Source: Patescibacteria group bacterium (GTDB lineage: Bacteria > Patescibacteriota > Microgenomatia > UBA12405). From it: DNA of 64,000 nucleotides. Below the pieces are notes generated by a model. The model made no database searches. It saw nothing but the letters and a program-made list of their open reading frames with translations, and had not been told where the DNA came from. The DNA lies in contig JAHIPV010000009.1 in the NCBI GenBank assembly GCA_018902845.1, positions 8,950-72,949 on the forward strand, written 5' to 3'. Positions 1 through 64,000 of this stretch are shown here, in pieces; position 1 is the stretch's first letter, and each line of letters begins with the position of its first letter. Both the position numbers and the translations under genes were made by a program.

Positions 1-145
1 ATGGTAATGAATAAATATAAAAACGGATTAAAAATTTTATATTGTAAAGAAAAAAGAAAAAAATAAATTGTTTTGATAGTATGACCAGAAGGGAAAGAAC
101 CGGTATCGTACCAGGACTGAACCAGGCCTTTGGGAAGTTTCATTT

Positions 146-176
146 GCCCCCCTGCGGGTGACTGCGCTGGTGCTTG
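146..176. repeat. GC-rich repeat module (CCCCTGCGGGTGACTGCGCT type)
   Basis: The same module recurs at 20874-20905, 23925-23960, 30090-30110 and 53036-53070. Confidence 0.8.
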
Positions 177-433
177 TTTTTGATACATTGGCCGTTTCCA
201 GTATGTTTTGTTTTTTAGAAACTTTTCTATAAATTCAGCCAAAACAGTTGCCAGTAAAATTTGCCAAAAAGTGTTGGCGTCTTTTTTGATAAGTAAAAAA
301 GAAATAAAAAATAGAAAAATCCAAATTAAATAGTTGAGAATGACAATGAGATTTTGGCCGAATTTAGAAGAATTAAGTTTTTCAAAAAAATCGGTTTTTG
401 ATTGCCAAAAAAAAATGTTTTTCACTGGAGTTT

Positions 434-2089
434 TTATTTTATAAAAATTAAATATTGAGTTGAAGTGTTATCTTTTGAAATATCGCTTGCTTCAGAAGCT
501 TGGCTATTTTTGTAATCATTAAAAGTATAAGGTGTTTGATCAGTTTTTGAAATTATTGAATAATCTGAATAATCGTTTGTTGTAACGTATATGACTTGAC
601 CGGAAAGAGTTTTTGTGTAATCGGTTTGTTCGAGTTTCTGCCTGTGTAAATTTGGTATAAAATATTGAAGAGAATCATTGATTGAAACAAATTCTTTATG
701 AGCTTTATCTGTAAAATATAAAGTTTTATATTTGTTTTTTGGATCGATGGCTAATATTTTTTCTAATTTTTTTATAAAATTAAAATGAAGAGTTTGTTGG
801 CCTGAAAGCTTGGTGTTTAAATACTGGTTTTGATAGATATAGCCTGTAGATAAAAAAAAGATTAAGTAAGCACAAAGAATTTTTATTATATATTTATTTT
901 TAGTTATTTTTAATTTTTTTAATATTATTACAAAATTAGTGAAAAGAATGGGAAAAATAATTAGAGCGCGATGCAGACGATAATCAACTCCATAATAGCA
1001 ATAGCCGCGAGATATAACAGCAATAACCAAGACAGCAATTGCCCAAAGAGAGGCGAGACTATTTTGCCAAAAAAGGAAAAGTGGGGATAAAATTAAAAAA
1101 ATAAAGATAAAATTGAATACCGGTGAAACAAAATTTATCCCCATGGTTTGAAAAATAAGATGTTTAAAAGCCAATAGAAGGTCACTTGTTAATTCTGTAA
1201 TGTTTTTATCTCCGGTAATCTGAATGTCATTTCTAAATCCTAGAGAAATTAAAAAAAGAAGGAGAGATGAAATAAACAAAAAAATGAAAAAATATTTTTG
1301 TTTTTTATTGATGTTTTTATTAAAAAATAAACAGAAAATAATCATTAAGGAAAAAAAGAAAAGAGATAGGCTTGGTGTGTAAGAAAAAATGAGATAGTAG
1401 AGAATAAAAGCAAAAAGAAAAAGAGGGGTATTTTTTTTATCTTTTATATAATGAAGAAATAATCCACTAATTATAAGGGCAAAAGAAAAAGGGAAAATGC
1501 TCTGTTCAAAACTAAAAAGAAGACGGTTAAAAAAGTCAATGTGAAAAAAGGAGCTTAAAATTAATGCACCGACAAGATCGCCAAAAAGAGAAAAATTAAA
1601 ATATTTTAATATTGCTGAGGAGAAAATGATAAGACCTAAAATAAAATATAAAGCTCCCCCGGTATGAAGATTAATTAGGCTACGTCCAAAGAATAAAGAT
1701 GGTAAGGTCGGTAAAAAATATTGACGAGCAGGATAACCAAAAAGACAGGTTTGACGAAAACCTTTGTCCGGTGATTGTTCAATATGATTAAGAGCGCAGG
1801 CAATTTCTTGAGGGGTTTCTCCGCTTAGGTTTGTTGCTAAAGGAATATTTTTAAAAATAATAAAAAGCAAGAAAATAATTAAGGCTGAAGTAAAAATACT
1901 TTTTTTCTTTGGAATATAAAGGATAATTTCCCAAAAGCATTTACAGGCAAAAATAGCTACATAGAGATAAGAAAAAAACCATAAATAAGTTCCAAATTTG
2001 CCAAAAGGTAAAAATTTTATAGAAAAAATATCGATTATGACCAGTAAAATAAAAGTTAGATAACCGGTAGAAAGATATAGCTTTTTCAC
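434..2089 (-). CDS. GT-C fold membrane glycosyltransferase (ArnT/PMT-like)
   Basis: 551 aa with more than 10 predicted TM helices and a long N-terminal hydrophobic core, as in the GT39/GT83 superfamily. It sits in the glycosylation locus. Confidence 0.5.
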   Translation of the reverse strand: MKKLYLSTGYLTFILLVIIDIFSIKFLPFGKFGTYLWFFSYLYVAIFACKCFWEIILYIPKKKSIFTSALIIFLLFIIFKNIPLATNLSGETPQEIACALNHIEQSPDKGFRQTCLFGYPARQYFLPTLPSLFFGRSLINLHTGGALYFILGLIIFSSAILKYFNFSLFGDLVGALILSSFFHIDFFNRLLFSFEQSIFPFSFALIISGLFLHYIKDKKNTPLFLFAFILYYLIFSYTPSLSLFFFSLMIIFCLFFNKNINKKQKYFFIFLFISSLLLFLISLGFRNDIQITGDKNITELTSDLLLAFKHLIFQTMGINFVSPVFNFIFIFLILSPLFLFWQNSLASLWAIAVLVIAVISRGYCYYGVDYRLHRALIIFPILFTNFVIILKKLKITKNKYIIKILCAYLIFFLSTGYIYQNQYLNTKLSGQQTLHFNFIKKLEKILAIDPKNKYKTLYFTDKAHKEFVSINDSLQYFIPNLHRQKLEQTDYTKTLSGQVIYVTTNDYSDYSIISKTDQTPYTFNDYKNSQASEASDISKDNTSTQYLIFIK

Positions 2090-2107
2090 TAGTCAAGTAT
2101 ACTAGAT

Positions 2108-3582: not shown

Positions 3583-3822
3583 ATGTTGCAATTAATAACA
3601 ATAACACCAAATTGGCAATTTTATATTCCAGGAAATATTAGAAAACAAATAAAATTAAACAGACCAACAAAAGCTAAAATAAGTGTAAAGAATAAAAAAA
3701 TCGTTATTGAACCAATTAAAAGTAAAATATTGACTGGTGCCGGTATGTTTGCCGGCTCTAAGCCAAACAGAAAGATCGATGTTGATAATATCCGGGATTT
3801 TATAGATTATTCGCAATGGTGA
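3583..3822 (+). CDS. AbrB/SpoVT-family antitoxin (VapB-like)
   Basis: 79 aa with a swapped-hairpin-like N-terminus (NWQFYIPGNIRKQIKL). Overlaps the downstream PIN gene by 7 nt. Confidence 0.55.
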   Translation: MLQLITITPNWQFYIPGNIRKQIKLNRPTKAKISVKNKKIVIEPIKSKILTGAGMFAGSKPNRKIDVDNIRDFIDYSQW

Positions 3823-4235
3823 AAATAAAAAAAGTTTTTATTGATACAAATTTTTGGATTCGTTATTTTACTAAAGACAACGAAATTCAATATAAGGCAA
3901 CGGTTGATTTGGTTGAAAAAATTGAGTCTGGTAAGTTTCGTCCTTTTATTTCTGCCATTGTTTTTCTTGAAATTAACTTCGTTCTTTCTCAATTGTACGA
4001 TAAAAATTTAAAGCAAATAAATAAATGCTTTGATTTGATAATGTCATTAAGAAACCTTGTTATTGTAAATAAAACTGATTTTGAAAAAGCTTTAAAATGG
4101 CATAGGAATTTGAAAATTAAACTACCAGATTGCCTAATCGCATCTTGTCTTCCAGATAATTGTGTTTTAGTAAGTTGGGATAAAGATTTTAATAAAATAA
4201 AAGAGATTGATAGTAAAAAACCTAGCGAGTTTTAA
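3816..4235 (+). CDS. vapC: PIN-domain toxin (VapC-like)
   Basis: N-terminal FIDTNFWIRYF motif with acidic residues typical of a PIN domain. 139 aa, translationally coupled to the upstream antitoxin. Confidence 0.7.
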   Translation: MVKIKKVFIDTNFWIRYFTKDNEIQYKATVDLVEKIESGKFRPFISAIVFLEINFVLSQLYDKNLKQINKCFDLIMSLRNLVIVNKTDFEKALKWHRNLKIKLPDCLIASCLPDNCVLVSWDKDFNKIKEIDSKKPSEF

Positions 4236-5029: not shown

Positions 5030-6936
5030 TTTTTCTTAAAAATTAAAACTTTGGGGTGGTCGTAGACGGTGAAGGCTTCTTCGGATGTGTCGTCGCGGAT
5101 GTAAATACCGGGGTATAGGCATTGGCTATCAATAGTAAACCATTTATTTGTTTTTTCTTTGTAAGGAAAATTGGTGGGGCCGAAATAATAACATTTTTTT
5201 AAAAATGGCAGGTTTATCCCTGGGTAAGAATTAATTTCTATTAATTTTGTAAAACTTAATTTTTCATCAAAGAGGTTTTGGTAAAATTTTGATGTTTGGG
5301 GATATTTGTTTGGTACTGGCGGGATGGAACCCCAAAGACGATTTGATGACATGATCATATAATCGGCATTATTTATAATTGGACTTAATCTTTGCCATTT
5401 TTCTGGTGTGTCTGGATCGTAAAGCGATAGCATTTGACCACTGTAACTGCTGGCAGTTTGTTTTGGTAAGTTTAATGGAAGAGGATCGTCCCAATATTCA
5501 TTTGTAATTAAGGATTCAATGGGAATATTTTTGTAAATCCAGTTTGATGCCTGAACGCGGGAATGAGGGCGGGAATAGATAGATAGAAAAGAAATGCAAA
5601 ATATAAAATGGAAAATAAAAGTAGTAAAAATGAATTTTAAATTAGAGGTTGGCTTGATAGCGAGCAAACATATAAATGGGTAGATTGGTAAAAAATAACG
5701 CATAGTAGTGACAAATTGAGAGCCCTGAAAAAAGAAAAGAAGGATAATCCAAGCCAACAAGAGAAAAACAATAGGATTGTGATTTTTTAAGATTTTGAGT
5801 TTTGTTCCAAAATCAGTGGTTATAAGATTCCTCGACTTCGCTCGGAATGACACGATTGTTTTGAGAGTGAAACTGATAATTTTAAAAAGTGAAATGAAAA
5901 ATAGGATTGATAGAGGTAAACCAATGCCCCAGAAAACAAGATTTTTTAGGGGGAAAAGAATGGGAGTTTTACTTAGCCATTGAACGGCTGGTGGAAACCA
6001 AGCATCTGGATCATTAAACGACTGAAGTGTTTTTAAATTGTCAATAAACTGAGGGTTGGGTTTGATAAGGGAAACAAAAGCGTATGGCTGAACAAGACGA
6101 AAAACAAGAAAAGTAGTTAGCAAAAAGTAAGATCCGAGAAAAATTAACTTGATTAAACGAATGATATTAAAAAAGTTTTTGGTTTTAAAAAAATAAAACA
6201 AAAAGAATAAAGCAATAACTGGAGAAAAAAGAAGAGCAGAAATTTTAGATGCCATGGCAAGACCAAAAAAAATTGGCGAGAGAAGTAAACTCCAGCTCTG
6301 CTGGAGACCTCGAACAAGTCGAGAGATCCCTCGACTACGCTCGGGATGACAGTTTCTTTTTGTTAGCCAGTGAGATAATAGTGTAAAAGTGGCGAAAATA
6401 AAGAAGTTTAAGAAAGTGTCAACGGCAAAAAAATGAGAGAGCTGAATTGGAAAAATACAGGTTGCGTAGAAAAGGCTGGGAAGAAAATATAATAACGGCC
6501 AGGTGTTTTTTGACTTGGGTGAGGTTTTGTTGCGACTGTATAATGGTTGTTTCTTGAAAATTAACTTTGAAATAAGATACAAGGAAAAAATGTTTAGGGA
6601 ATCAAAAAAAGCTGAAAGTGCGCGACCCAGAAAGTGAATTTTACCGTAAGAATCGAGATTTAGTATGGTGGCTAAATATTTTGTCAAAAAAATAGGAAAG
6701 GTGCCATAAACAAAAAACTGATATTCTTTATAGTTGTATGGATTTAGCGGAGAGATATTAGTATTTAGGTATTGTGTAAAGGAAATCGGAAGTTTTATTC
6801 TTTCGGTTACCATGGTCAAAAATCTTTCGTCTGGGTGGAGATGCTGATCGTTGTCCCAATTAATACCGTAAAGACGAAGAGACAAGGCAAAGAGGAAGAT
6901 AAGGATTAAAATTATTTTGTTTTTATGATTTTTCAT
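5026..6936 (-). CDS. GT-C fold membrane glycosyltransferase (PMT/ArnT-like) with two in-frame repeat insertions
   Basis: 636 aa, polytopic, with an HPDERF loop motif after TM1. Repeat-derived segments are HPERSRGISRLVRGLQ (6309-6352) and SFRAKSRN (5827-5854). Confidence 0.55.
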   Translation of the reverse strand: MKNHKNKIILILIFLFALSLRLYGINWDNDQHLHPDERFLTMVTERIKLPISFTQYLNTNISPLNPYNYKEYQFFVYGTFPIFLTKYLATILNLDSYGKIHFLGRALSAFFDSLNIFSLYLISKLIFKKQPLYSRNKTSPKSKNTWPLLYFLPSLFYATCIFPIQLSHFFAVDTFLNFFIFATFTLLSHWLTKRNCHPERSRGISRLVRGLQQSWSLLLSPIFFGLAMASKISALLFSPVIALFFLFYFFKTKNFFNIIRLIKLIFLGSYFLLTTFLVFRLVQPYAFVSLIKPNPQFIDNLKTLQSFNDPDAWFPPAVQWLSKTPILFPLKNLVFWGIGLPLSILFFISLFKIISFTLKTIVSFRAKSRNLITTDFGTKLKILKNHNPIVFLLLAWIILLFFFQGSQFVTTMRYFLPIYPFICLLAIKPTSNLKFIFTTFIFHFIFCISFLSIYSRPHSRVQASNWIYKNIPIESLITNEYWDDPLPLNLPKQTASSYSGQMLSLYDPDTPEKWQRLSPIINNADYMIMSSNRLWGSIPPVPNKYPQTSKFYQNLFDEKLSFTKLIEINSYPGINLPFLKKCYYFGPTNFPYKEKTNKWFTIDSQCLYPGIYIRDDTSEEAFTVYDHPKVLIFKKK

Positions 6937-8660
6937 AAAATTAAGTCTTCTATTTCTTCTTTTGATAAATAATTTTGTTTTTTGTAAATTCTTATAACAG
7001 GATGATCAAATACGGAAAAGGTTTCTTCGGCATTTTCATCTGATAAAAGGAACGGAAAAACTGAAAACTGTTTTAATTTTTCAAATCCCAGTTTACCAGA
7101 AAAAAGAGTTTGGTAATATTTCTGAGAGTATGGAAAAAGGGATCCTTCTCCCGCCACGGCGGGATCAGGATGACGACGGTATTGGTTTTTGAAGATACGG
7201 CGGGATGGTATAAGTATGTAATCACTCTGATGAATCTGTTCTACTAACAGTTTTGGTGAATCAGGATCGCTGTCCAAATTGTAAAAATCAAAATTGTGTA
7301 CGTCTAACTGATGCTGATTAACCGGTACGTTTATAACATTGCCGGCTTCAGAAAGAATTTTTGTATGAGGCAAGAGGTTATTTTTAAGCCAATCAGAGGC
7401 AGTTATGCGAATATCTGGTTTTAAATAAATTGAAAAAAATATAATTCCGGGTAATATTGAAAAAATGATTAATATTTTTGATAAAAATTTGTATTTTTTG
7501 ATCTGTTGAAAAAAAACGATTGATAAAAAAGGAAAAACAAAAAAAATCGGAGACATGAAACGAGACCATTTGGTGTAAAGAAAAGAATTGTAAAAAAAAT
7601 AGACAAGAGCAGGAATGAGAACGACTAGCCAGTTAATTAATGTGTCATCCCGCTTAGCGGGACGTGGTGATCTCGTAGGAAATGTAAAAGATGTGGTTGT
7701 AACTCCGGCGGGATTGCCACGTCGTAAAACTCCTCGCAATGACAGAATTGCTCCAATTATTGCAAATAGCAATACAGGCGGGCCGACGGCGTAGGGGAAA
7801 ATTTTGGTAAATTGAAAAAGAATTGGTGTGGAGTTTAAAAACTGGTTAGTGTAGAACATTTTAGTTTTTCCCATAGCAACAGAGGTTTCATAATTTAAGG
7901 TTGATCTAAAATCAGGTCCGGCAATAAGGTTGAATGGAGAAAAAATTATGAAAAATAGAGTGCTATTGAGTAAAAGAAAAGAAGTGAGAAGAAGTAGGTA
8001 ATTTTTTTTATTTTTTTTAAAAAAAGCAAAAAAAATAGACAAAAGCATTGGACCAAGAAAAAAAAGAGAAGTGATTTTTGAAGCCAAGCCAATACCGGTG
8101 ATAATCGAGGATAAAAATATACTTACCAGAGATTGATTTTGATAAAAATTGAGAGCCAAAAATATGTTTATGGCGAAAACGAAAATAAGCAAGGATTCGG
8201 TGGTACCAAAATGAGCTAATTGTATTAAGGCCGGTGTAAAAATTAAAAATAAAAGCAATAAAACACTTTGTTTAAATGAAAAAAATAATTTTTTGGAAAT
8301 TAAATAAAAAATGAAAACTGAAATTGAAGAAAAAAGAGATGAATAAAACCTCAGCATCAAAACAGAGTTAATAAAATTATTTGGTAGTTTTAATGAATAA
8401 AGAGTGAAAAAAGCCAGATAGAGAGGAAATTGACCATAAGCAAAAAAATGAGGGTTTAAGTCCGTTATTTTTAATTTTGATATAGCAGTGGCCATATTGT
8501 TTTCATCCGGATGAAAAAAATAAGAATCCGCCCAATCAAGTTTATAAAAACGAGTGAGGATAGTAAGAAAAAAGAGAAAAAAGATTAAAAATGTTTTTTT
8601 TGAGAAAAACGCTTCGCTAGATTTTTGGGGCTGTTTTTTAAATAACATAGATAATAGCAA
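6933..8660 (-). CDS. GT-C fold membrane glycosyltransferase (paralog) with an in-frame repeat insertion
   Basis: 575 aa, polytopic, with an FHPDEN loop motif similar to the neighbouring paralog. The segment RRGNPAGVTTTSFTFPTRSPRPAKRDDT is encoded by repeat modules at 7643-7745. Confidence 0.55.
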   Translation of the reverse strand: MLLSMLFKKQPQKSSEAFFSKKTFLIFFLFFLTILTRFYKLDWADSYFFHPDENNMATAISKLKITDLNPHFFAYGQFPLYLAFFTLYSLKLPNNFINSVLMLRFYSSLFSSISVFIFYLISKKLFFSFKQSVLLLLFLIFTPALIQLAHFGTTESLLIFVFAINIFLALNFYQNQSLVSIFLSSIITGIGLASKITSLFFLGPMLLSIFFAFFKKNKKNYLLLLTSFLLLNSTLFFIIFSPFNLIAGPDFRSTLNYETSVAMGKTKMFYTNQFLNSTPILFQFTKIFPYAVGPPVLLFAIIGAILSLRGVLRRGNPAGVTTTSFTFPTRSPRPAKRDDTLINWLVVLIPALVYFFYNSFLYTKWSRFMSPIFFVFPFLSIVFFQQIKKYKFLSKILIIFSILPGIIFFSIYLKPDIRITASDWLKNNLLPHTKILSEAGNVINVPVNQHQLDVHNFDFYNLDSDPDSPKLLVEQIHQSDYILIPSRRIFKNQYRRHPDPAVAGEGSLFPYSQKYYQTLFSGKLGFEKLKQFSVFPFLLSDENAEETFSVFDHPVIRIYKKQNYLSKEEIEDLIL

Positions 8661-9574: not shown

Positions 9575-10417
9575 TTACAATAATATCAGAAGTCCTAGCA
9601 AGGAAACAATGGATCCAAATATCATTAAGCCCTTGGTGGGGAAGTCAACACCAGCATCGGGTAGAACTATTCTGGTTGGACTTGGACCTTGGGCTATATA
9701 GACAGGTGTATCGGTTGGTCTTGGAGTGCTGGTTGGCTGTGGAGTTCCTGTGGGGGTATTGGTGGGTGTGTTGGTTGGAGTATTAGTGGGTGTGTTAGTG
9801 GGCGTATTGGTTGGAGTGCTGGTAGGAGCGGTACAGCAAGTAAGGTAAGAAGGGTTGATAATACAAGCATCTTCAAATTGAGACATAGCACAGTAAGAGT
9901 TACCGTCATCAGTATCGATACAAATTAGACCAGATTGACAAGGATTAGACGAATCGTCGCAGGGAGTATAGCCACAGGCATTTGGTTCTGGAGTTGGGGT
10001 GTTGGTTGGAGTATTAGTGGGTGTGTTAGTGGGCGTATTGGTTGGAGTGCTGGTTGGGGCGGTACAACAAGTGATATAGGAAGGGTTGATAATACAAGTG
10101 TCTTCAAATTGAGACATAGCACAGTAAGAGTTGCCATCATCAGCATCGATACAAATTAGACCAGATTGACAAGGATTGGATGAATCATCGCAGGGAGTGT
10201 AACCACAAGCATTTGGCTTTGGAGTTGGAGCGACTACGGTAAAGTTTAAACTACAGGGCAGAGGTGCTTCTTGAGCCTGCGGTCTTTCCGGTACAGTTGG
10301 CTTAACTTCTTCCTGGCTAATTTGTTTTAGCCGTTGAGCAGTCAAAATTGCCACACCGGCCAGAATAATGGTGCTAATCAGGCTAATAATGATGGTTAAT
10401 TTTTTCTTTTTATTCAT
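9575..10417 (-). CDS. Secreted/anchored Cys-rich repeat protein with Thr-Pro linkers. The start is probably the internal Met at 10417.
   Basis: N-terminal TM/signal sequence (MNKKKKLTIIISLISTIILAGV). Two near-identical ~65-aa Cys-rich modules (NACGYTPCDDSSNPCQSGLICID...CC), each followed by TPTNTPTN linkers. Confidence 0.6.
   Translation of the reverse strand: MNKKKKLTIIISLISTIILAGVAILTAQRLKQISQEEVKPTVPERPQAQEAPLPCSLNFTVVAPTPKPNACGYTPCDDSSNPCQSGLICIDADDGNSYCAMSQFEDTCIINPSYITCCTAPTSTPTNTPTNTPTNTPTNTPTPEPNACGYTPCDDSSNPCQSGLICIDTDDGNSYCAMSQFEDACIINPSYLTCCTAPTSTPTNTPTNTPTNTPTNTPTNTPTGTPQPTSTPRPTDTPVYIAQGPSPTRIVLPDAGVDFPTKGLMIFGSIVSLLGLLILL
9735..10225. repeat. Two tandem ~240-bp near-identical repeats encoding the Cys-rich module plus TPTN linker
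   Basis: Long identical stretches, e.g. GGTTGATAATACAAG..TCTTCAAATTGAGACATAGCACAGTAAGAGTT.. appears twice. Confidence 0.85.
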
Positions 10418-10419
10418 AA

Positions 10420-11946
10420 TTATTGGGCTGCCCCCCAGGTGGTACAGTTGCCTTCCTTGCAAACACGGCATTGGACACTATAGGCACCAGGAATATCAAT
10501 AGTGATTGATTGAGAATCAGCCATCCAGTGGTCAGCGCCGGCATAATCAGCAAAACGTAAACTTGTAACAACCCAAGGAATATTATTGTAGTCTCCGGCA
10601 TCAATGTTATAGCGGAAGTCGAACCGATCGGGACCGTAGTTATTGGTGCCAGTATCAACACAAGTAAAATTAACTTCATCACCTAAACTCGGAGTACCAG
10701 ACGGATCCATGGTGATGTCAACACAAGCAAGTTCAGGTAGTGGTGTTGGCGTGGGGGTGTTAGTTGGAGTGCTGGTGGGAGCGGTACAACAAGTGATATA
10801 GGAAGGGTTGATAATACAAGCGTCTTCAAATTGAGACATAGAGCAGTATGAATTGCCATTATCAGCATCGACACAAATTAGACCAGGCTGACAAGGACTG
10901 GATGAATCATCGCAGGGAGTATAGCCACAGGCATTTGGTTCTGGAGTTGGAATTTGTGTAGGAGTATTGGTGGGGGTGGGAGTGGGAGTTCTGGTGGGGG
11001 TGGGAGTTAAGGTAGGGGTGCTGACTCTGGTTGGAGTAGGTGTTGGGATTCTGGTGGGGGTAGGAGTAGTAAGTGTGATGGTTTCAGTACAAACAGAGTT
11101 TGCCTGAGACGGCCAAGAATCGTTTGAAACAGCTGGATTTTTTACAACAACAGAGATATTAGTTCCGTTTAGATTGGCTATATTTGTAAATGTGTGAGTA
11201 GCGGTACAGATAATTTTTTTGGCTCTAGGATCATGACCCATAATTGCCCATGATTGAGTGGTACCGGTAGATGAATCGGGTTGGCAAGTTGATGTAATTC
11301 CTTCGTCTCCGGAAGTCATTGTGGTTGAACCCGATAAGGCAAACTTAAATTTAACTGCACTGCTATTCATAATAATTGAGGCGCAACCTTCGCCATGTGG
11401 ATCACTGATATCACTAGGACAAGCTAGTTTGCTTGTCGCCGGCAATTCACTATAACCTGTTGCTGTTATTGTCAAATTTTCTCCATCAATACGATATTGA
11501 ACATCGATACAATCGTCACAATTTGTGTCATTGTTTCTGTATAAACTGGCGGCACCGTAACCGCTATAAAATTGGTCTTTTTGAAGGGAAGAACATTTAA
11601 CGGGATAATTACCGTAGACATCGGTTGCTTCTCCGCCAACCTGACATGATCCTGGTGGTCCAAAATTTGGACCTCCTAGCGGAGGACTATTTTCACCGTC
11701 TTTTTTTATTCTAGTAATTGAATAGAAATTTGAAGTTTCTCTGCCACAAGGGCCAGAGATATTTCCATTGCACCAGAAACACCAATCCCAGTATTGATCC
11801 AAGGCAACATCGTATGCTTTGTCACGAATATCCTGTTTCTGTTTGACTAAAACAACGCCAGCGACTAGAGATAAGAATAAAAAAAATACCGACAGGACAG
11901 GATATAATTTTTCTGCTGATTTAAATTTTTCGAGTATTTTGGCCAT
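10420..11946 (-). CDS. Secreted Cys-rich surface protein carrying one copy of the same module
   Basis: N-terminal signal/TM, many Cys, a TPTPT linker region, and one copy of the NACGYTPCDDSSSPCQPGLICVD module shared with the downstream gene. Confidence 0.6.
   Translation of the reverse strand: MAKILEKFKSAEKLYPVLSVFFLFLSLVAGVVLVKQKQDIRDKAYDVALDQYWDWCFWCNGNISGPCGRETSNFYSITRIKKDGENSPPLGGPNFGPPGSCQVGGEATDVYGNYPVKCSSLQKDQFYSGYGAASLYRNNDTNCDDCIDVQYRIDGENLTITATGYSELPATSKLACPSDISDPHGEGCASIIMNSSAVKFKFALSGSTTMTSGDEGITSTCQPDSSTGTTQSWAIMGHDPRAKKIICTATHTFTNIANLNGTNISVVVKNPAVSNDSWPSQANSVCTETITLTTPTPTRIPTPTPTRVSTPTLTPTPTRTPTPTPTNTPTQIPTPEPNACGYTPCDDSSSPCQPGLICVDADNGNSYCSMSQFEDACIINPSYITCCTAPTSTPTNTPTPTPLPELACVDITMDPSGTPSLGDEVNFTCVDTGTNNYGPDRFDFRYNIDAGDYNNIPWVVTSLRFADYAGADHWMADSQSITIDIPGAYSVQCRVCKEGNCTTWGAAQ
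10745..10950. repeat. Third copy of the Cys-rich module repeat, in the adjacent gene
   Basis: GGTTGATAATACAAGCGTCTTCAAATTGAGACATAGAGCAGTATGAATTGCC is highly similar to the copies at 9735-10225. Confidence 0.8.
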
Positions 11947-12005
11947 ACTAATAATAGTTTTTTAGATATTTTAATCTTAGATTAATATTTTTTTTAATGC
12001 AAATG

Positions 12006-18302: not shown

Positions 18303-18349
18303 ATCTAAAATTTAAAATCTAAATTTCCAAATAAAACTAGAATAATAAC

Positions 18350-18700: not shown

Positions 18701-18715
18701 AAGACTGGACTGACT

Positions 18716-45177: not shown

Positions 45178-45179
45178 AA

Positions 45180-49820: not shown

Positions 49821-49839
49821 ATATTTAAAATTTAAAAAA

Positions 49840-53178: not shown

Positions 53179-53215
53179 ATGATAATAGTATAGTTGAATT
53201 CTGCAAAGCAGAATA

Positions 53216-53260
53216 TCTCGAACAAGTCGAGAGATCCCTCCGCTTCGGTCGGGATGACAA
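53216..53260. repeat. GC-rich repeat module in the divergent promoter region of the AmmeMemoRadiSam genes
   Basis: CTCGAACAAGTCGAGAGATCCCTCCGCTTCGGTCGGGATGACAAT; compare 6309-6352. Confidence 0.85.
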
Positions 53261-53280
53261 TAATATCTGTATTAAAAAAA

Positions 53281-54330
53281 ATGAAAAAAGCAAAGACATT
53301 GTACAAAAAATTAGATAAGAATACGGTGCAGTGCAGGGCTTGCAATTGGTATTGCAAGATTAAAGAAGGAAATGTGGGGATATGTGGAGTAAGGCAAAAC
53401 AATAGTGGAGAGTTGTGTTTGTTGGTGGATGGAAAAATAATTAGCTTAGCGGTAGATCCGATTGAAAAAAAGCCTTTGTTTCATTTTTTGCCGGCAAGTA
53501 AAACTTTATCTTTTGGAACTTTGGGGTGTAATTTTGGTTGCGCTTTTTGCCAGAATTGGCAACAATCGCAAGGAATAAAGGGGAAATTATGGTTGCTTTT
53601 AAATTATTCAGAGGTCAGGAGATCCCTCGACTTCGCTCGGGATGACAAGACTCCTAAAGAGATTGTAGAAAAAGCCGAGAAATTGGGGTGTGAGTCAATT
53701 GCTTATACCTACAACGAGCCAACGATTTTTGTTGAATATGCTTATGAAACGATGAAGCTGGCAAAAAAGGCGGGTATAAAAAATGTATGGGTGTCTAATG
53801 GATTCATGTCAGATGAGAGTTTTGAGCTAATAAAAGATTTGATTGACGGCATTAATATTGATTTAAAAAGTATAAATAGTGACTTTTATAGAAAAATTTG
53901 TAAAGGAAAATTAGAACCGGTTTTGAAAAATATTAAGAAATTTTATAAGGCTGGAATTTGGATAGAGTTGACTACTATGATAATTGCCGGCGAAAACGAC
54001 TCCCCTGCTGAGTTAAAAAAAATTGCTGAGTTTATTGCTAATCTTTCTTGCGACATTCCTTGGCACGTAACCGCTTTTCATCCTGATTATAAAATGATGG
54101 ACAAAGAAGCTACTAGCTTGGAAAAATTGGAAGAGGCATGGCAAATTGGTAAAAAATCTGGCTTAAAGTATATTTATACCGGCAATGTTTGGGGTGGAAA
54201 AAATTCAACATATTGTGTGGAATGTGGAAATTTGCTAATAGATAGGGGGGATTATGGATCAGGAAAAGTTTTGGGGTTGGCAGATGGAAAATGTGAAGAG
54301 TGTGGCCAGAAAATTAGTGGAGCGTGGTAG
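53281..54330 (+). CDS. AmmeMemoRadiSam system radical SAM enzyme, with an in-frame repeat insertion. The ATG at 53281 is preferred over the TTG at 53194.
   Basis: GTLGCNFGCAFCQNW is a radical-SAM Cys motif. The segment EVRRSLDFARDDK is encoded by the repeat at 53611-53650. The upstream extension from 53194 only reads through a repeat. Confidence 0.75.
   Translation: MKKAKTLYKKLDKNTVQCRACNWYCKIKEGNVGICGVRQNNSGELCLLVDGKIISLAVDPIEKKPLFHFLPASKTLSFGTLGCNFGCAFCQNWQQSQGIKGKLWLLLNYSEVRRSLDFARDDKTPKEIVEKAEKLGCESIAYTYNEPTIFVEYAYETMKLAKKAGIKNVWVSNGFMSDESFELIKDLIDGINIDLKSINSDFYRKICKGKLEPVLKNIKKFYKAGIWIELTTMIIAGENDSPAELKKIAEFIANLSCDIPWHVTAFHPDYKMMDKEATSLEKLEEAWQIGKKSGLKYIYTGNVWGGKNSTYCVECGNLLIDRGDYGSGKVLGLADGKCEECGQKISGAW
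53611..53650. repeat. 39-bp repeat element, in frame in the radical SAM gene
   Basis: See 32912-32950. Confidence 0.85.
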
Positions 54331-55132: not shown

Positions 55133-55190
55133 AATAACGCTTCGCTAGATCCTTCGTCCGATCAATCGGACTCAGGATGACAAATAGGGG
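55133..55190. repeat. GC-rich repeat block abutting the left direct repeat of the cassette
   Basis: GCTTCGCTAGATCCTTCGTCCGATCAATCGGACTCAGGATGACA. Confidence 0.8.
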
Positions 55191-55235: not shown

Positions 55236-55526
55236 TTAAAATTGTACTGAAGCCTTACCCTGTACAAACTGGCGAATTAAAGCATTTAACAATGTTTGAT
55301 ATGGAACATTGTTTCTTTTCGCTTTTGCCTTTACTTTGATTAAGTCTCCTTGATTAACACGGATTGTTATTCTTTTTGATTTTTGCAATTCTTCGTAATT
55401 TTTGACTGCTTCTTTAAAAAGATTTTTAGCATGACTTAGATTAGAAGTACTGACAAATTCTTCTCTTTGTAAGGCTTTTTCGATTCTTTTTTCTTGTTTG
55501 TCTAATTTTGGATTAATTTTTTTCAT
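55236..55526 (-). CDS. BrnA-like antitoxin (CopG/RHH-like)
   Basis: C-terminal ITIRVNQGDLIKVKAKAKRNNVPYQTLLNALIRQ resembles BrnA; compare DVPYQSLLKIFL in 61840-62118. Confidence 0.5.
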   Translation of the reverse strand: MKKINPKLDKQEKRIEKALQREEFVSTSNLSHAKNLFKEAVKNYEELQKSKRITIRVNQGDLIKVKAKAKRNNVPYQTLLNALIRQFVQGKASVQF

Positions 55527-55921: not shown

Positions 55922-56746
55922 ATGTTAATGGACGTTAAAGAAGGATTGAAAAACTTAAAAGAACAAGAGAGACAGATACCTGAAATTGAAAGAAAAGCAG
56001 TGGTAGGTTTAGTTAGAGAAATGACTATGCCCTTGAACCTAAGAGATGGTCTTTTTGATACAGCCGTAACGAGATTTACAGACGTGTGTGACCATTTGAG
56101 AGTTGTTTTTGTTTTTCCTGTTCCTGGTGAAGTGCCGGACTTAACGATAGTTGAAGATGATGGGTTATCAAAAATTGTAGTGGAAGAACATAAAATAGCA
56201 AAATCCCAAGTGGAAACAAACAATCTTTTTGGGCCTAAGGTTGATGAAGTAATAACGTTAATTAAGATTAGAGATGATTTATCATTAGCTGAACTTGGGA
56301 AATTGATAAAAACTATTAGAGAACTAAGCAAGTCTCCTTTGTGGAGTGGAAAAGATCAACAGCAGGCTGATGAATGGCAGGAGGGAGTTAGAGAGTATAG
56401 CTCAAACTTGAGATGGGCCGGATTGGCCATGATGGAGGTACAAAAACAAGCAAATGGAAAACAAGCAAAAGAAACGAGCGATTTTGACGATTTTTATCGT
56501 AAATCAGTTGAGATTGTTTTTAAATTAGGCCAAGCTATTGATTTAGATCGAAGGAACGGTTCAGTCCCGACCTTGGATGAAGCTTGTGAAGAATTAAAGA
56601 GAAATAAAACGGATGAATATGGAGAAGCATTGCAACAGGGTTTGCAATATGCCAGATATGCGGGTAAATCAAAAAGACAATTAGAGTTTGCTGATATGGC
56701 TAGGCTTTATCAGAGAGTAAAGAAGAATAAAAGAATTGCCTGTTGA
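55922..56746 (+). CDS. Hypothetical protein (cassette gene 1)
   Basis: 274 aa, acidic, no TM and no recognisable motif. Overlaps the next gene by 11 nt. Confidence 0.4.
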   Translation: MLMDVKEGLKNLKEQERQIPEIERKAVVGLVREMTMPLNLRDGLFDTAVTRFTDVCDHLRVVFVFPVPGEVPDLTIVEDDGLSKIVVEEHKIAKSQVETNNLFGPKVDEVITLIKIRDDLSLAELGKLIKTIRELSKSPLWSGKDQQQADEWQEGVREYSSNLRWAGLAMMEVQKQANGKQAKETSDFDDFYRKSVEIVFKLGQAIDLDRRNGSVPTLDEACEELKRNKTDEYGEALQQGLQYARYAGKSKRQLEFADMARLYQRVKKNKRIAC

Positions 56747-57401
56747 TTTTGCAGAAGCTGTGGTTTTGCGAGGAATAGAACAGATGTATCAAGAGTTGCC
56801 AGTACCAAAATGGGTTAAGGCTTTAATAAGGGCTGATTTAGAAGATGAAAATCAACTAAAACAAATTACTCAAGCAATTGATCAGGAACTTGGATCAGGA
56901 GTGGTTGGACAAATAATTCACGAGTTTTTGAGTTATGAAAAGTATCAACGGTATTGTTTTGATGAAAATGAGAAAAAAAAAGAAGACGTAAAATTAATGG
57001 AGTTACTAATAAAAAATGAAAGTAAAAAAGATATCAAGGCGTTGTTAATTAGATATCAAGACCACTTACAAAGCCTGGGATTAGGTAAAGATAATATTGT
57101 CCGGTTTAGCGACTGGCTAGAAGACCCTGAGTTTTTTGATAAAGAGAAGAAAGCCAAATTATTAAGAGAGTCGAGTAAAAAGTTTGGATGGGAAAAAGAT
57201 AAGAATGTTAGAAACCTCGATGATGTGAATGGTTATTATCAAAATCTCTTAAAAACAGCGGATGAAGAAGAAATAAGAGAGTTATTAAAGGAACAAACTC
57301 GCTTTCAAAAAACCATGATGATTATGATTGTTGATGAAATGAGAATTAATTATGGTGGCTGGGAAGGACTTTGTTGTTGGCTAGGTCTGCTATGGCATTA
57401 G
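56736..57401 (+). CDS. Hypothetical protein (cassette gene 2)
   Basis: 221 aa with no recognisable motif. Overlaps the next gene by 31 nt. Confidence 0.4.
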   Translation: MPVDFAEAVVLRGIEQMYQELPVPKWVKALIRADLEDENQLKQITQAIDQELGSGVVGQIIHEFLSYEKYQRYCFDENEKKKEDVKLMELLIKNESKKDIKALLIRYQDHLQSLGLGKDNIVRFSDWLEDPEFFDKEKKAKLLRESSKKFGWEKDKNVRNLDDVNGYYQNLLKTADEEEIRELLKEQTRFQKTMMIMIVDEMRINYGGWEGLCCWLGLLWH

Positions 57402-57988
57402 GGATAAATCTTGAAAAAATTAGTGGTGCTGATACTTTTGGTCACACGACGCTATCTGTTAAATGGGCTGATGGTGATGAAAATGTTGTGGAGGCAAGTG
57501 CTTATAAAGGAAGTGAGCTGGTTGATATAAAAGAAGTTGCAGATCCAAATGGACTACTGCAAAAAGGAGAAAGAGTCGTAAAAAGATTGAGTGGTAAAAG
57601 ATATCTTTTGGTTGATATTCGAAAATATCTTGCTTCTCGTGTTTTAGTAAATTTACAAATTTGCTTGGATACGAATTCTTTGTTGAAAAAATTTCAGCAA
57701 GAAATTTTTTTCAACTCAGCTGATATAAATAATTGGTTCGCCGATAGACACAGTCAGGGACATAAAACTATGGCGAGTATTACCAGAGCTACTGGTAAAA
57801 AGAAAGATGAAATCGATCGGATGCTTGATAGATTAACGTTTTTGTGTCCAAATTATTATAGAGCCAGTGGAGAAGGAGATGAATTATCTGGAGAGTATTC
57901 TGATTACCCTGATTTCCAGAAAATGATGAGAAGGTTGTTTAAAGAAAGAAGTGAGGAGAAAGGAGAAAAGAATAGGTTTTATTCGTAA
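57371..57988 (+). CDS. Hypothetical protein (cassette gene 3)
   Basis: 205 aa with no recognisable motif. Its stop codon lies inside the right direct repeat. Confidence 0.4.
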   Translation: MLLARSAMALGINLEKISGADTFGHTTLSVKWADGDENVVEASAYKGSELVDIKEVADPNGLLQKGERVVKRLSGKRYLLVDIRKYLASRVLVNLQICLDTNSLLKKFQQEIFFNSADINNWFADRHSQGHKTMASITRATGKKKDEIDRMLDRLTFLCPNYYRASGEGDELSGEYSDYPDFQKMMRRLFKERSEEKGEKNRFYS

Positions 57989-61111: not shown

Positions 61112-61157
61112 GCGCCTAGATTCTTCCCCCGCCATGGCGGGGTCAGAATGACGTAGA
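61112..61157. repeat. GC-rich repeat module
   Basis: CGCCTAGATTCTTCCCCCGCCATGGCGGGGTCAGAATGACG. Confidence 0.8.
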
Positions 61158-61522: not shown

Positions 61523-61560
61523 TTGACAACACTTGTTTTGTATATTATGATAATATACAA
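61523..61560 (+). promoter_or_regulatory. brnTA promoter TTGACA-17-TATGAT with an overlapping 8-bp inverted repeat operator (TTGTATAT-N7-ATATACAA)
   Basis: Read directly from the sequence. The palindrome spans the -10 element and reaches the start codon. Confidence 0.55.
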
Positions 61561-61853
61561 TGGATTTGTTAAGTAAACTAGAAGGTTTCGACTGGAACAG
61601 AGGAAATGTTAAAAAAAATTGGATAAAACATAAAGTAAATGCAAAAGAAGCTGAAGAAGTTTTTTTTAATAAACCATTGCTTGTTAATTTTGATCAAGAA
61701 CATTCGAAAAAAGAAAAAAGATTTCGAGTGCTTGGCAGAACCAATAAGAAAAGAAGATTATTTATTTCTTTTACTTTAAGAAAGAAAAAAATTAGAATTA
61801 TTTCTGCTCGAGATATGAGCAAGAAAGAAAGGATAAATTATGAAAAAGTTTAA
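61560..61853 (+). CDS. brnT: BrnT toxin (DUF497)
   Basis: FDWNRGNVKKNWIKHKVNAKEAEEVF and IRIISARDMSKKER are the hallmark BrnT motifs. Confidence 0.75.
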   Translation: MDLLSKLEGFDWNRGNVKKNWIKHKVNAKEAEEVFFNKPLLVNFDQEHSKKEKRFRVLGRTNKKRRLFISFTLRKKKIRIISARDMSKKERINYEKV

Positions 61854-62118
61854 AAAGATACCAAAATTTAAAAATGAGAATGAAGAAAGAGAGTTTTGGG
61901 CGACTCATGATTCTACTGAATATGTTGACTGGAGTAAGGCTGTTAAAAATCCGGTTTTCCCCAATCTCAAGCCTTCTACTGAAACTATTTCTTTGAGACT
62001 GCCAAAATATTTATTAGCAAGGCTCAAAGAATTGGCCAATTCTAAAGATGTTCCCTATCAATCATTGTTGAAAATATTTTTGTCTGAAAGAATAGATAAA
62101 GAAATCCAGACGGCCTGA
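61840..62118 (+). CDS. brnA: BrnA antitoxin
   Basis: ISLRLPKYLLARLKELANSKDVPYQSLLKIFL is a BrnA-type RHH C-terminus. Overlaps brnT by 14 nt. Confidence 0.7.
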   Translation: MKKFKKIPKFKNENEEREFWATHDSTEYVDWSKAVKNPVFPNLKPSTETISLRLPKYLLARLKELANSKDVPYQSLLKIFLSERIDKEIQTA

Positions 62119-62169
62119 AAAAACAAAAACACCCTCATTGAAAGAGAGTGTTTTTGTTAGAGACAGGTA

Positions 62170-62607
62170 TTATTTGAAAAATTTTCTTCCTCTGTTACCA
62201 AAGGAATGAAATAATTCCATATCAATACCATTTTCTTCTGCCCATGTACGCATTTCTTGTTGATGCTGTTTTCCGGCTTCGCCACATTCGGCCATAAGTT
62301 CTTCCTTTTTGGCTAGAAAAGCTTCTTTTTGTTCCTGAGTAATTTTGCCGTCAGAGACAGCTTGGTCTAGTCTTTCTTCTAAACCGGCTCTCATCTGTTG
62401 TTGTCTTTGTTGTCTGTGCTCATCAAAAACCTGTTTAACTTCATCTCCGTTTAAATTGAAACGATCGATAAGTTTTTGGACTAATGGCGGATAGGTGCTG
62501 TCGTCGTTGGCGTTAACTACTTTGATTCCAAAAACCATGACTGAAACTAAAAGGGCTAAAACCAAAGTTGTAATAGCGAGTTTCTTTGTGTTCATTTGTT
62601 CCCTCAC
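62170..62607 (-). CDS. Periplasmic LTXXQ-motif (Spy/CpxP-like) protein
   Basis: Signal/TM, Gln-rich helices and a KITQEQKEAFLAKKEEL segment; 145 aa. Confidence 0.4.
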   Translation of the reverse strand: MREQMNTKKLAITTLVLALLVSVMVFGIKVVNANDDSTYPPLVQKLIDRFNLNGDEVKQVFDEHRQQRQQQMRAGLEERLDQAVSDGKITQEQKEAFLAKKEELMAECGEAGKQHQQEMRTWAEENGIDMELFHSFGNRGRKFFK

Positions 62608-62666
62608 CTCCTTTTATTTATTAATTGCTAATAAGAGGATGATAGGAAAGGAAACTGAGAAGAGGC

Positions 62667-63668
62667 TTAAGAAAGCGGGAGGCGGAGGGTGAAGGTGGAG
62701 CCGTGACGGATTTCGCTTTTTACACTAATTGAGCCTTGGTGTTGGGTGATTATTTTTTTTGCTAATGATAAGCCTAATCCAAAACCCATTTGTTTTGATC
62801 GTGAAACGTCTACACGATAAAAACGATCGAAAATGTGAGGAATATGTTGTTTTGAAATTCCAATACCAGTATCTTTGATTTTTAATATTAAGTATTTTTT
62901 GGTCGTTTGGGTTGCGACAAGGACTGAGCCTTTTTTTGGCGTATATTTTATGGCATTGTCCAGCAATATTATTAAGAGTTCTGTTAGCAAATCGCTATCT
63001 CCTCTTACTGTTTGGTTTTTTGGTTCTGGGCTTATACGGACTTTAATTTTTTTCTGTTTGGCTAAAGGATCAATGCTTTTTAAGGCTTTGTTGACAACAT
63101 CGGCGATTTTTGTTGTTTTTAATTTTAGGTTGTTACTATTATCATCCTGTTTGGCAAGACGCAAAAGATTGTTTGTTAAAGAATTTAAATTATTTACATC
63201 ACTTAAATTACTTTTTAATATTTCTTTGGTTTGTTTTGAAAGTTTTTTGGTTCGTAAATCTACCTCCATGGAAGTTTTTAGAGCTGTTAAGGGAGTACGA
63301 AGTTCGTGGGAAGCGTCGGCTATAAATGTTTTTTGTTTTTTCATTGCTTTTTCTATTGGCTTTAGAGTTTTGCCTGCCAAAAAATAACCGGCAGTAGCAG
63401 AAAAAAACAATATGACTCCGTTGGTGTAGATCAAAAGAAAAAGGAGACTTTTTTGGGCATTTTTTAAATCCTGATCCAAAAGGCTGTGCAAAGGCGGAGG
63501 GACTCTTTCTGTGTTAAATCTTCTTTCGATATTGGTAAGGCTTCTTTTGAGTTGAAAATTGACTCTGGTGTAAATGAACAAGGAAAAAACACCCGAAATA
63601 ATCATGATGATGACTAGATAGTAGATGGTTAGTTTGATTCTGGCTGATTTAAACATTCTGTTTATCAC
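62667..63668 (-). CDS. Sensor histidine kinase (two TM helices, HisKA, HATPase_c)
   Basis: SHELRTPLTAL H-box, N-box LDNAIKYTP, and G-boxes DTGIGI and GFGLGLSLAKKI. Confidence 0.8.
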   Translation of the reverse strand: MINRMFKSARIKLTIYYLVIIMIISGVFSLFIYTRVNFQLKRSLTNIERRFNTERVPPPLHSLLDQDLKNAQKSLLFLLIYTNGVILFFSATAGYFLAGKTLKPIEKAMKKQKTFIADASHELRTPLTALKTSMEVDLRTKKLSKQTKEILKSNLSDVNNLNSLTNNLLRLAKQDDNSNNLKLKTTKIADVVNKALKSIDPLAKQKKIKVRISPEPKNQTVRGDSDLLTELLIILLDNAIKYTPKKGSVLVATQTTKKYLILKIKDTGIGISKQHIPHIFDRFYRVDVSRSKQMGFGLGLSLAKKIITQHQGSISVKSEIRHGSTFTLRLPLS

Positions 63669-64000
63669 TAATTTTGTAACCGAAACCTCTGATGGTGTGA
63701 ATTAGGGGTTTTTTGTTTTTAAAGGCCTTGTCGAGCTTATTTCTCAAATAACCGACATAAACTTCGACCGTATTGGGTAAAACATCGGCATCATAATTCC
63801 AAACATGATTAATAATTTGGTCTTTGCTTAAAATTTGTTCTTTGTGCTGTAAAAAATATTGTAATAAGGCGAATTCTTTTTTTGATAAATTTATGTTTTT
63901 TTGTCCGCGTTTTACTTGGTAAGTTATTGTATTAAGTGTCAGGTCAGATACTGAAAGTATGGATCCTGTATTGTTTTTTGGTCTTCTGGATAGGGCCTTG
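63649..64000 (-). CDS. OmpR-family response regulator (C-terminal part only; the start lies beyond the window end)
   Basis: Reverse translation gives ...LSKDQIINHVWNYDADVLPNTVEVYVGYLRNKLDKAFKNKKPLIHTIRGFGYKISDK, a winged-helix DNA-binding domain. Overlaps the kinase start. Confidence 0.7.
   Translation of the reverse strand, partial: KALSRRPKNNTGSILSVSDLTLNTITYQVKRGQKNINLSKKEFALLQYFLQHKEQILSKDQIINHVWNYDADVLPNTVEVYVGYLRNKLDKAFKNKKPLIHTIRGFGYKISDKQNV

Follow-up and report, generated by a model that had tools for sequence, protein, structure and literature searches.

The stretch analysed here, referred to below as the window, is a 64,000-nt segment of a tiny groundwater bacterium, a Patescibacteria group bacterium (contig JAHIPV010000009.1 of assembly GCA_018902845.1, positions 8,950 to 72,949 of the forward strand); coordinates are those of the window unless contig positions are named. 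It is almost identical to contig JAHIMY010000014.1 of the metagenome-assembled genome (MAG) GCA_018895715.1, the sole difference across 21.7 kb being one extra copy of a 21-nt tandem repeat, and the closest named relatives of its GT4 protein are those of Candidatus Shapirobacteria. The gene map, assembled from gene calls and recorded Pfam annotations over contig positions 3782–79812 (~76 kb), includes type IV pilus genes, PMT-type glycosyltransferases, POR, FolD, an isc operon and several toxin–antitoxin pairs. Dispersed between and within these genes are short GC-rich palindromic repeats, and all tagged modules among them are very probably copies of one superfamily of non-autonomous elements belonging to the CGTC-tagged class of repetitive extragenic palindromes (REPs).

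Self-comparison of the window yielded ~30 GC-rich repeated segments, mostly of ~40–65% GC in a window of 35.4% GC. A structural scan for YGTC followed by AT and a stem of at least 5 bp, with composition-matched shuffles as the control, recovered 45 tagged hairpins against a shuffle mean of 7.0 and a shuffle maximum of 15. Approximately 40 of the 45 were judged genuine and grouped in 29 loci, which together sum to 2336 bp or 3.65% of the window; the five others, AT-rich hairpins at 1225, 20331, 36995, 54427 and 58548, were set aside as chance occurrences, a number that fits the seven expected. The pervasive palindromic repeats reported in an earlier, sequence-only reading of this DNA are thus real. 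Nine of the ten modules quoted there recur far above chance, with 11 matches at up to two mismatches for TTCGCTCGGGATGACA against 0 in shuffles, 20 matches for CGTCATCCTGA against 0.5 in shuffles, and four copies of CCCCTGCGGGTGACTGCGCT in the window. The tenth, GTCATTCTGAGCGnAGCGAAGAATC, has no match in the window even at three mismatches, having been transcribed one base short; the true module, GCGNNAGC, contains two variable bases and is present in three copies. The five concatenated arrays were located correctly, at 21012–21176, 24552–24662, 30061–30225, 44463–44579 and 49835–50107. By contrast, the statement that nearly every intergenic gap above 60 bp is occupied was wrong, since only 14 of the 24 such gaps (58%) hold an element.

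Each unit follows a common grammar, namely an unpaired CGTC or TGTC tag followed by a stem whose first bases are AT, a loop that varies or encloses a nested hairpin, and finally a short tail. The stem consists of five Watson–Crick pairs, a tandem G·A/A·G pair and then further pairs, and occurs in seven variants that are all complementary (ATCCT/AGGAT, ATCCC/GGGAT, ATTCC/GGAAT, ATTCT/AGAAT, ATCGC/GCGAT, ATTGC/GCAAT and ATCAC/GTGAT). GA...GA usually adjoins the stem, the loop is either short (GCGAAGTC) or contains a nested hairpin (CCCGCC...GGCGGG, CACCCGCAGGGGG or GTCCGAT..ATCGGAC), and the tails are short (ccca, cccg, ctct, ctag) or longer (CCCGTCGGAGT, CTAGCGAAGCG). All ~40 genuine units carry CGTC or TGTC directly before the stem, and AT...AT forms the stem base in every one of them, which, given that the scan itself required AT, is a count of fits rather than an unbiased test. 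If the G·A pairs are counted, the canonical 27-mer has an 8–9-bp stem (five Watson–Crick pairs, two G·A pairs and one covarying S–S pair) and a loop of 4–6 nt, whereas most other units have loops of 11–25 nt with nested hairpins.

Units occur singly, as inverted doublets with the tags outward, and in mosaic arrays of singles, doublets and partial units. Ten loci contain tag-outward doublets of 61–148 nt, some with three inner hairpins, and in all ten the tags lie on the outside. Folding of the composite units had been proposed as a check on the repeats, and as single-stranded DNA (ssDNA) the doublets indeed fold into one long hairpin (z = −2.6 to −8.1), with only 0–4 of 200 shuffles folding as well. 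The window also contains small palindromes without a tag, CCCCCTGCGGGTGACTGCGCT (four copies) and GGGCGACCGCAAGGGTCGCCCC (two copies). Since two tagged units have an almost identical CACCCGCAGGGGG core as their inner hairpin and the GGGCGACCGCAAGGGTCGCCCC palindrome is nested in a tagged doublet, the untagged palindromes are part of the same system. The 29 loci are listed below, with the strand where one was assigned; open reading frames are abbreviated as ORFs.

139–181: untagged module CCCCCTGCGGGTGACTGCGCT, one of four copies found by self-comparison; in frame in the PAP2 gene, encoding AQSPAGGQ
2678–2806: trimer of a single unit (2678–2714, tag on the minus strand) and a tag-outward doublet (2722–2801); in frame in the inter-domain linker of the plus-strand GT4 gene
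5795–5861, minus strand: single unit tgtcATTCC..GGAAT (5827–5852) with the shared 5' extension; in frame in the gene for a 636-aa PMT-like membrane protein (VSFRAKSRNL)
6285–6358, minus strand: half-composite of hairpin modules and a unit (6326–6351); in frame in the same 636-aa PMT-like gene (CHPERSRGIS)
7139–7176, minus strand: single unit cgtcATCCT-ga-[CCCGCC..GGCGGG]-ga-AGGAT; in frame in the PMT_2 gene (RRHPDPAVAGEGS); −9.5 kcal/mol, z = −2.6
7643–7745: tag-outward doublet of 103 nt; in frame in the PMT_2 gene; z = −2.6
18713–18748, minus strand: single unit with tail CCCGTCGGAGT; divergent intergenic region upstream of tatD
19586–19675: tag-outward doublet of 89 nt between convergent tatD and an 81-aa ORF; z = −5.5
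20024–20064, minus strand: single unit tgtcATCGC..GCGAT at the 3' end of folD, which reads through it in the window (+24 aa)
20683–20725, minus strand: single unit with tail CTAGCGAAGCG, folD insertion 2; in frame, 45 nt (QPVILNECEESSEA)
20866–20908: untagged module, folD insertion 1; in frame, 30 nt (TSAQSPAGGQ)
21012–21176: composite tag-outward doublet with three inner hairpins (21014–21145) and a partial unit (21146–21170), between the M24 peptidase gene and folD; z = −2.8
23919–23961: untagged module copy; in frame in the POR alpha gene (AKAQSSAGGRL), common to the related sequences L002 and L003
24552–24662: tag-outward doublet (24552–24637) and a partial unit, between POR and ABC genes; z = −4.5
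29057–29119, minus strand: single unit tgtcATTGC..GCAAT (29087–29118) with tail CCCGTTGG; intergenic
30061–30225: array of a single unit (30076–30108), a tag-outward doublet (30118–30203) and a partial unit; from self-comparison and structural scan
32891–32959, minus strand: single unit (32923–32948) with the shared 5' extension; divergent region between PDDEXK and methyltransferase genes
33559–33609, minus strand: single unit, antisense; in frame in the plus-strand methyltransferase gene, adjoining a variable 21-nt tandem repeat
39402–39533: composite of a degenerate left unit (TGTCATTGCGAGG), an intact right unit (39476–39501) and a partial unit; forms the N-terminal 45 aa of a 517-aa pilin-like ORF
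40022–40111: tag-outward doublet of 77 nt between a 154-aa ORF and pilC; z = −4.0
44463–44579: composite tag-outward doublet with three inner hairpins (44464–44572), between pilB and a response-regulator gene; z = −4.3
45104–45179, minus strand: half-composite and a unit (45150–45175); intergenic
49835–50107: array of a single unit (49851–49883), a 148-nt doublet (49890–50037) and a 61-nt doublet (50044–50104) inside the isc operon; z = −8.1 and −4.0
52283–52309: hairpin CGGGCGACCGCAAGGGTCGCCCCTACA, the same as the core of 50061–50087; in frame in the inter-domain linker of the Memo/AMMECR1 gene
53035–53077: untagged module copy near the N-terminus of Memo/AMMECR1, in another reading frame (GAVTRRGK)
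53190–53266, minus strand: half-composite and a unit (53234–53259); divergent intergenic region
53606–53658, minus strand: single unit (53622–53647), antisense; in frame in the plus-strand radical SAM gene
55133–55182, minus strand: single unit with tail CTAGCGAAGCGTT; intergenic
61117–61153, minus strand: single unit cgtcATTCT-ga-[CCCCGCC..GGCGGGG]-ga-AGAAT; intergenic, upstream of an RND-adaptor gene; z = −3.1

A perfect CGTC-tagged hairpin with an 8-bp stem at 50478–50502 in iscS (CGTCATTCTGAACTTGTTTCAGAATCCCA) was dropped from the catalogue: the IscS protein aligns without gaps to solved IscS, so the hairpin is no insertion and is either a chance occurrence or an element-like sequence that arose in place.

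Copies within genes and their gain and loss between strains

Of the 29 loci, 14 are wholly contained in called genes and read in frame, the hosts being the genes for FolD, GT4, PAP2, two PMT-type proteins (two elements each), POR alpha, the methyltransferase, the radical SAM protein, Memo/AMMECR1 (two elements) and the pilin-like ORF. The effect of such copies is most apparent in FolD, for which five versions of the locus were aligned, among them those of the window, L002, L165 and L167. L002 and L165 are two contigs of the MAG GCA_018817965.1, which thereby holds two folD alleles, 79% and 92% identical to the window protein; the bin accordingly mixes strains. The window FolD has 327 aa compared with 286 aa in the 79%-identical L002 orthologue, a difference made up by the 30-nt block (TSAQSPAGGQ), the 45-nt block (..QPVILNECEESSEA) and read-through of the 3'-end element; in L002 and L165, folD ends at a TGA inside that element. 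Among the 120 best homologues, nearly all of which are 275–290 aa long, the internal blocks are shared by only two close relatives (97% and 92% identical); both blocks are absent from L002 and from 117 of the 120, insertion 2 also from L167, and solved FolD structures lack both inserts. The AlphaFold2 (AF2) model of FolD has a mean predicted local distance difference test score (pLDDT) of 86.9, with most residues outside the inserts above 90, and pLDDT falls below 50 only within element-encoded stretches (residues 30–34, 77–79, 82–91, 307–314 and 318–327), so that the in-frame copies are predicted to form disordered peptide loops. In the GT4 protein, a linker block of 31 aa (PWDDGESVILSGSEESQMKCLTPTGSLDFAR) is absent from ten homologues of 51–64% identity. 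Peptides spanning the element junctions read ...KKQTSAQSPAGGQTNIK... in FolD and ...PWDDGESVILSG... in GT4.

Among the host genes, one and the same unit is translated in different frames and from either strand; it is therefore inserted DNA that selection has subsequently filtered rather than a protein motif. Elements also define gene ends: CGTCATCCTGA supplies the stop codon of tatD (19594–19596) within the doublet at 19586–19675, and the TGA stop of the response-regulator gene (44562–44564) within the doublet at 44463–44579. The surviving copies are either intergenic or in frame in tolerant parts of genes, such as loops, inter-domain linkers and termini, and some donate stop codons or re-frame C-termini. 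Core enzymes, including FolD, POR, radical SAM proteins and glycosyltransferases, have in this way been remodelled with element-encoded loops, new C-termini and donated stops. The view that the repeats generate spurious ORFs consequently holds only in part, as these 14 loci are read in frame within called Pfam-domain genes; for annotators, peptides such as CHPERSRGIS, VILSEAKNL and AQSPAGG in metagenomic proteins should be regarded as repeat-derived and not necessarily as spurious. The 21-nt tandem repeat TGACGGTGTGAAAAGACAGGG (DGVKRQG) at 33597–33660, in which the window has one copy more than GCA_018895715.1, begins at the GACG tag of the element in the methyltransferase gene.

Comparison of copy positions across related genomes, suggested earlier as a check for recent mobility, shows that copies have been gained, lost and swapped between related strains. 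Despite 99.4% identity over 2717 nt, L167 and L002 each carry a doublet insertion missing in the other: a 109-nt one at the end of folD in L002, and one of ~120 nt in front of tatD in L167. At the site before tatD (19586–19675), the right unit of the window is that of L167 and the left unit differs; the 3'-end element of folD (20024–20064) is absent from L167; and at 18713–18748, L002 holds a unit of a different subfamily. In L165, folD insertion 2 is the canonical CGTCATCCTGAGCGAAGTCGAAGGAT, from which the window copy differs at seven positions, including a compensatory stem change from ATCCT/AGGAT to ATTCT/AGAAT, while the directly adjacent folD sequence is nearly identical. The composite between M24 and folD (21012–21176) has no counterpart in L002, the spacer of which is unrelated sequence. 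These presence/absence differences support mobility, or at least recent gain and loss. Separately, L002 lacks 237 nt that in the window separate the genes for M24 peptidase and POR gamma (21959–22199); this stretch contains no palindromic element and may be a small unannotated ORF.

Relationship to known repeats and distribution across bacteria

The published class that the units resemble most is that of the CGTC-tagged REPs (Di Nocera, De Gregorio, Rocco 2013, BMC Genomics 14:522; PMC3733652), defined by a CGTC, TGTC or CCTC tag at one end of a palindrome, a stem of 8–9 bp with A and T almost invariably at the first two positions, a loop of 4–5 nt with exceptions, and a short unpaired tail with the consensus CCA. 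Head-to-head (HH) dimers predominate in that class, some copies are intragenic, clusters are rare and no dedicated transposase is known; members were reported from five phyla, a list that does not include Patescibacteria, and the class comprises elements RPE-4 (CGTC-4) and RPE-6 (CGTC-1) of R. conorii, CGTC-1 being also equated with dRS3 (PMC3733652). Judged by this verbal definition, the window units fit in the tag, the AT stem, the HH dimers, the intragenic copies and the lack of an adjacent transposase, and fit in part in the loop and the tail. If the G·A pairs are counted, the canonical unit comes near the published stem and loop, with 8–9 stem positions and 4–6 loop nucleotides, and the tail is often CCC(A); the CCA consensus is matched by only some units. 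As in the published elements, there are intragenic in-frame copies. In contrast to them, the loops of many window units are long and enclose nested hairpins, tails can be longer (CCCGTCGGAGT, CTAGCGAAGCG), arrays occur commonly rather than rarely, and about half of the loci are coding. The window thus documents a known repeat class, dense and coding-invasive, in a phylum where it was previously undescribed, and extends the known, if poorly understood, CGTC-tagged REPs and Rickettsia palindromic elements (RPEs) to the Candidate Phyla Radiation (CPR).

The sequence-only reading had described the repeats as REP- or MITE-like (miniature inverted-repeat transposable elements) and analogous to RPEs, an analogy that is well founded, inasmuch as the units fit the definition of a class that includes RPE-4 and RPE-6. 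RPEs are reportedly palindromic repeats lying in frame in functional genes, where loops tolerate them. The window elements are alike in this respect, FolD, GT4 and other genes being left intact by in-frame insertions, and RPE-4 and RPE-6 share the CGTC tag, which is the only basis of the link. In both cases the host is a symbiont with a reduced genome, but the present host is a CPR bacterium rather than an alphaproteobacterium, and its elements are shorter and more modular than RPE-1, which is ~100–150 bp long. We know of no transposase for RPEs.

Two further families offer partial parallels. REPINs (REP doublets forming hairpins) are described as elements with a GTAG tag that flank a single-copy gene for a REP-associated tyrosine transposase (RAYT), in which the inverted REP pair, folding as a long hairpin, is the apparent replicating unit, singletons look decayed and stems covary (Bertels and Rainey 2011; Nunvar et al. 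2010). The window doublets likewise fold as long hairpins and appear to be the replicating unit, the singletons look like decayed doublets and the stems covary, whereas the tag is YGTC instead of GTAG and neither a RAYT nor a Y1 transposase was found in the 76 kb. Neisseria intergenic mosaic elements (NIMEs) are mosaic arrays in which other repeat modules lie between the dRS3 units; these units are mostly intergenic and serve as integration targets of the IS110 type and of phages. In the window, the ATTCC(C)..(G)GGAAT units are dRS3-like and form mosaic intergenic arrays as well; unlike in Neisseria, no IS110-type or phage integrase was seen in the window. A search of Rfam with gathering and E-value thresholds returned no family match, merely two at chance level, and a scan for tRNA and tmRNA found none. 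Literature searches recovered only unrelated primers for the literal sequences and, among the matches listed, no link between RPEs and CPR.

Exact copies of the canonical unit TGTCATYCCGASCGWAGYSGAGGRATC were recovered from at least 120 species-representative genomes, which span at least 13 phyla, those among the matches listed being Verrucomicrobiota, Acidobacteriota, Patescibacteria, Bacillota, Chloroflexota, Bacteroidota, Planctomycetota, Bdellovibrionota, Pseudomonadota, Nitrospirota, Gemmatimonadota, Abditibacteriota and Armatimonadota; in these genomes the unit frequently makes up the left half of a doublet with outward tags. Covariation was read at the two position pairs that the 27-mer pattern leaves free, and both show perfect or near-perfect covariation: among 160 copies drawn from 143 loci, S12–S19 is G–C in 137 and C–G in 23, with no mismatch, and Y7–R24 is Watson–Crick in 157, G·T in two and C·A in one. 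A search for a RAYT-like gene among ORFs bracketed by inverted units at the 143 loci, all of other organisms, gave 23 candidates, which all had the look of ordinary genes, with no Pfam follow-up. A blastn search with the composite element against 72,556 plasmids gave no match. TGTCATYCCGASCGWAGYSGAGGRATC is also present in 23 IMG/VR contigs classed as viral, some with two or three copies in 5 kb.

Spread of the repeats and competing explanations

The orientation of the units bears on how they might spread. GGATGACR and GAATGACR together occur 29 times on the plus strand and nine times on the minus strand of the window, and all ~18 genuine singletons by our own count, together with three in the contig flanks, have the tag on the minus strand, including three singletons inside plus-strand genes (GT4, methyltransferase and radical SAM). 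Since the GC skew is positive almost throughout the window (29 of 32 2-kb bins), the strand that carries the tag is the one rich in C. Singletons of independent metagenome loci, collected with the CTAGCGAAGCG-tail pattern, lie on the locally C-rich strand in 42 cases versus 19 (p = 0.004) and favour neither the sense nor the antisense orientation (11 versus 10). Taken together, these patterns suggest strand-specific insertion. Despite the positive GC skew, 57 of the 75 window genes lie on the minus strand; if the G-rich strand is the leading one, most of them are transcribed head-on to replication.

We consider it probable that the best overall explanation combines membership of the CGTC-tagged REPs, gain and loss of copies between strains, spread in trans and selection. 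Copies would be spread by an enzyme encoded elsewhere that recognizes the tagged hairpin and probably acts on ssDNA, as do TnpA of the insertion sequences (IS) IS200/IS605 or RAYT on REPs, and selection would then purge every insertion that breaks a reading frame or a protein fold. Such an enzyme would account for both the one-strand orientation of singletons and the strict conservation of pairing. Nevertheless, mobilization in trans with an ssDNA step is offered here as a tentative proposal, by analogy with these systems, given the imprecise junctions and the failure to find an enzyme. The search for a cognate transposase, recommended with the first description of the repeats, came back empty: no annotated gene over contig positions 3782–79812 has a Pfam match to one, nor did a direct Pfam scan of ten window ORFs without a recorded match reveal any. 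Three overlapping plus-strand ORFs (274, 221 and 198 aa) at 55922–57988 have no Pfam family, and the last of these (198 aa) has a weak, sub-threshold match to PC4, an ssDNA-binding fold (E = 0.004).

Besides the missing enzyme, several observations weigh against mobilization of this kind. Filled and empty sites are not bounded tag-to-tag and the inserted segments carry 5–25 extra bases, an imprecision that is not the exact excision and insertion expected of IS200/IS605-type chemistry, and two of the events have direct repeats resembling target-site duplications, CAAACG (6 nt) and AATCCAAC (8 nt). The identity between L167 and L002 falls from 99% to 88% across one polymorphic element, so that part of the presence/absence differences could be due to alleles recombining by homology and not to transposition, and no element polymorphism is seen among near-identical assemblies. 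In cross-phylum 27-mer loci, the relation of the tag strand to local GC skew is not significant (40 versus 35), and only three cases in the window separate strand from transcription. Finally, the canonical 27-mer alone has no unusual predicted stability (z = 0.2).

The hairpins could instead be structures kept by the host for use, in mRNA stability, cistron separation, protein binding or nucleoid organization, with spread being secondary. Pairing is perfectly maintained in at least 13 phyla, genes of one direction flank nine of the 14 intergenic loci, some of which are within the isc and pil operons, and the elements supply the stops of tatD and the response-regulator gene. The conservation of pairing does not discriminate, however, as it is also needed for mobilization, and a host function sits poorly with 14 loci inside coding sequence, with presence/absence between 99.4%-identical strains and with the lack of an Rfam family; moreover, no element is followed by a T-run, and in the 18000–34000 segment terminator-like sites are not enriched (16 versus 12.3 expected) and none coincides with an element. 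We therefore regard host selection as an unlikely primary cause.

Rather improbable as well is that the doublets are classical MITEs, that is, IS deletion derivatives moved by a DDE transposase that uses terminal inverted repeats, cut-and-paste transposition and target-site duplication. The inverted termini YGTCAT...ATGACR of the 61–148-nt doublets and the direct repeats flanking the two polymorphic insertions are what this model expects. Yet inspection of ten doublets revealed no consistent target-site duplication, about half of the units are singletons or half-elements, which a terminal-inverted-repeat model does not predict, and what is conserved is the tag and a hairpin with covarying stems rather than a fixed terminal repeat. 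No DDE transposase is annotated in the 76 kb or present in the ten unannotated window ORFs, and none has been described for the class (PMC3733652). Possibly, both MITE-like transposition and host selection are partial contributors.

That the repeats are ordinary coding motifs and pieces of decayed genes, with no mobile DNA involved, is refuted and very hard to credit: three of the four copies of the untagged module do encode the same flexible peptide AQS(P/S)AGG, but the same DNA units occur in all frames, in both coding orientations and in non-coding DNA, and the inserts are missing from close orthologues and solved homologues and are predicted by AF2 to be disordered. Chimeric joining at repeats during assembly or binning, for which the mixed strains of GCA_018817965.1 might be cited, has a negligible chance of being right and is ruled out by element sequences, including insert-carrying proteins, that recur at 100% identity in independent NCBI, ENA, JGI and Logan assemblies, in identical element-bearing stretches of 5–22 kb.

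Returning to mobilization in trans on ssDNA, a more far-reaching version, which we consider doubtful, is that the CGTC hairpin is among the most widely spread mobile DNA sequences in Bacteria, moved by a broadly distributed, strand-specific ssDNA enzyme at the replication fork. If true, this ~1-Mb Patescibacteria lineage, in which 99.4%-identical strains differ and singletons lie on one strand, would be a minimal natural system for finding the enzyme. To our knowledge, the mobilizer of the CGTC-tagged REPs and RPEs has not been known since 2000–2013; the near-invariant cross-phylum 27-mer, the gains and losses within populations and the strand-uniform orientation provide handles on it.

The window has further features of note. 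At 9700–12300, long G/T-rich coding tandem repeats on the plus strand, with periods of 12–18 nt and three 261-nt copies, give rise to the Pro/Thr-rich linkers of three successive minus-strand ORFs without Pfam matches (280, 508 and 443 aa). Two paralogous single-domain response-regulator genes at 44562–45572, 74% identical over 82 nt (44728–44809 versus 45352–45433), are separated by elements and a 59-aa ORF. Many toxin–antitoxin and abortive-infection modules are packed into the 64 kb (3816–4235, 36447–37102, 41403–42834, 55236–55526 and 61560–62118), the types represented being PIN, PIN/MazE, AbiEii with a partner, CopG-type and BrnT/CopG.

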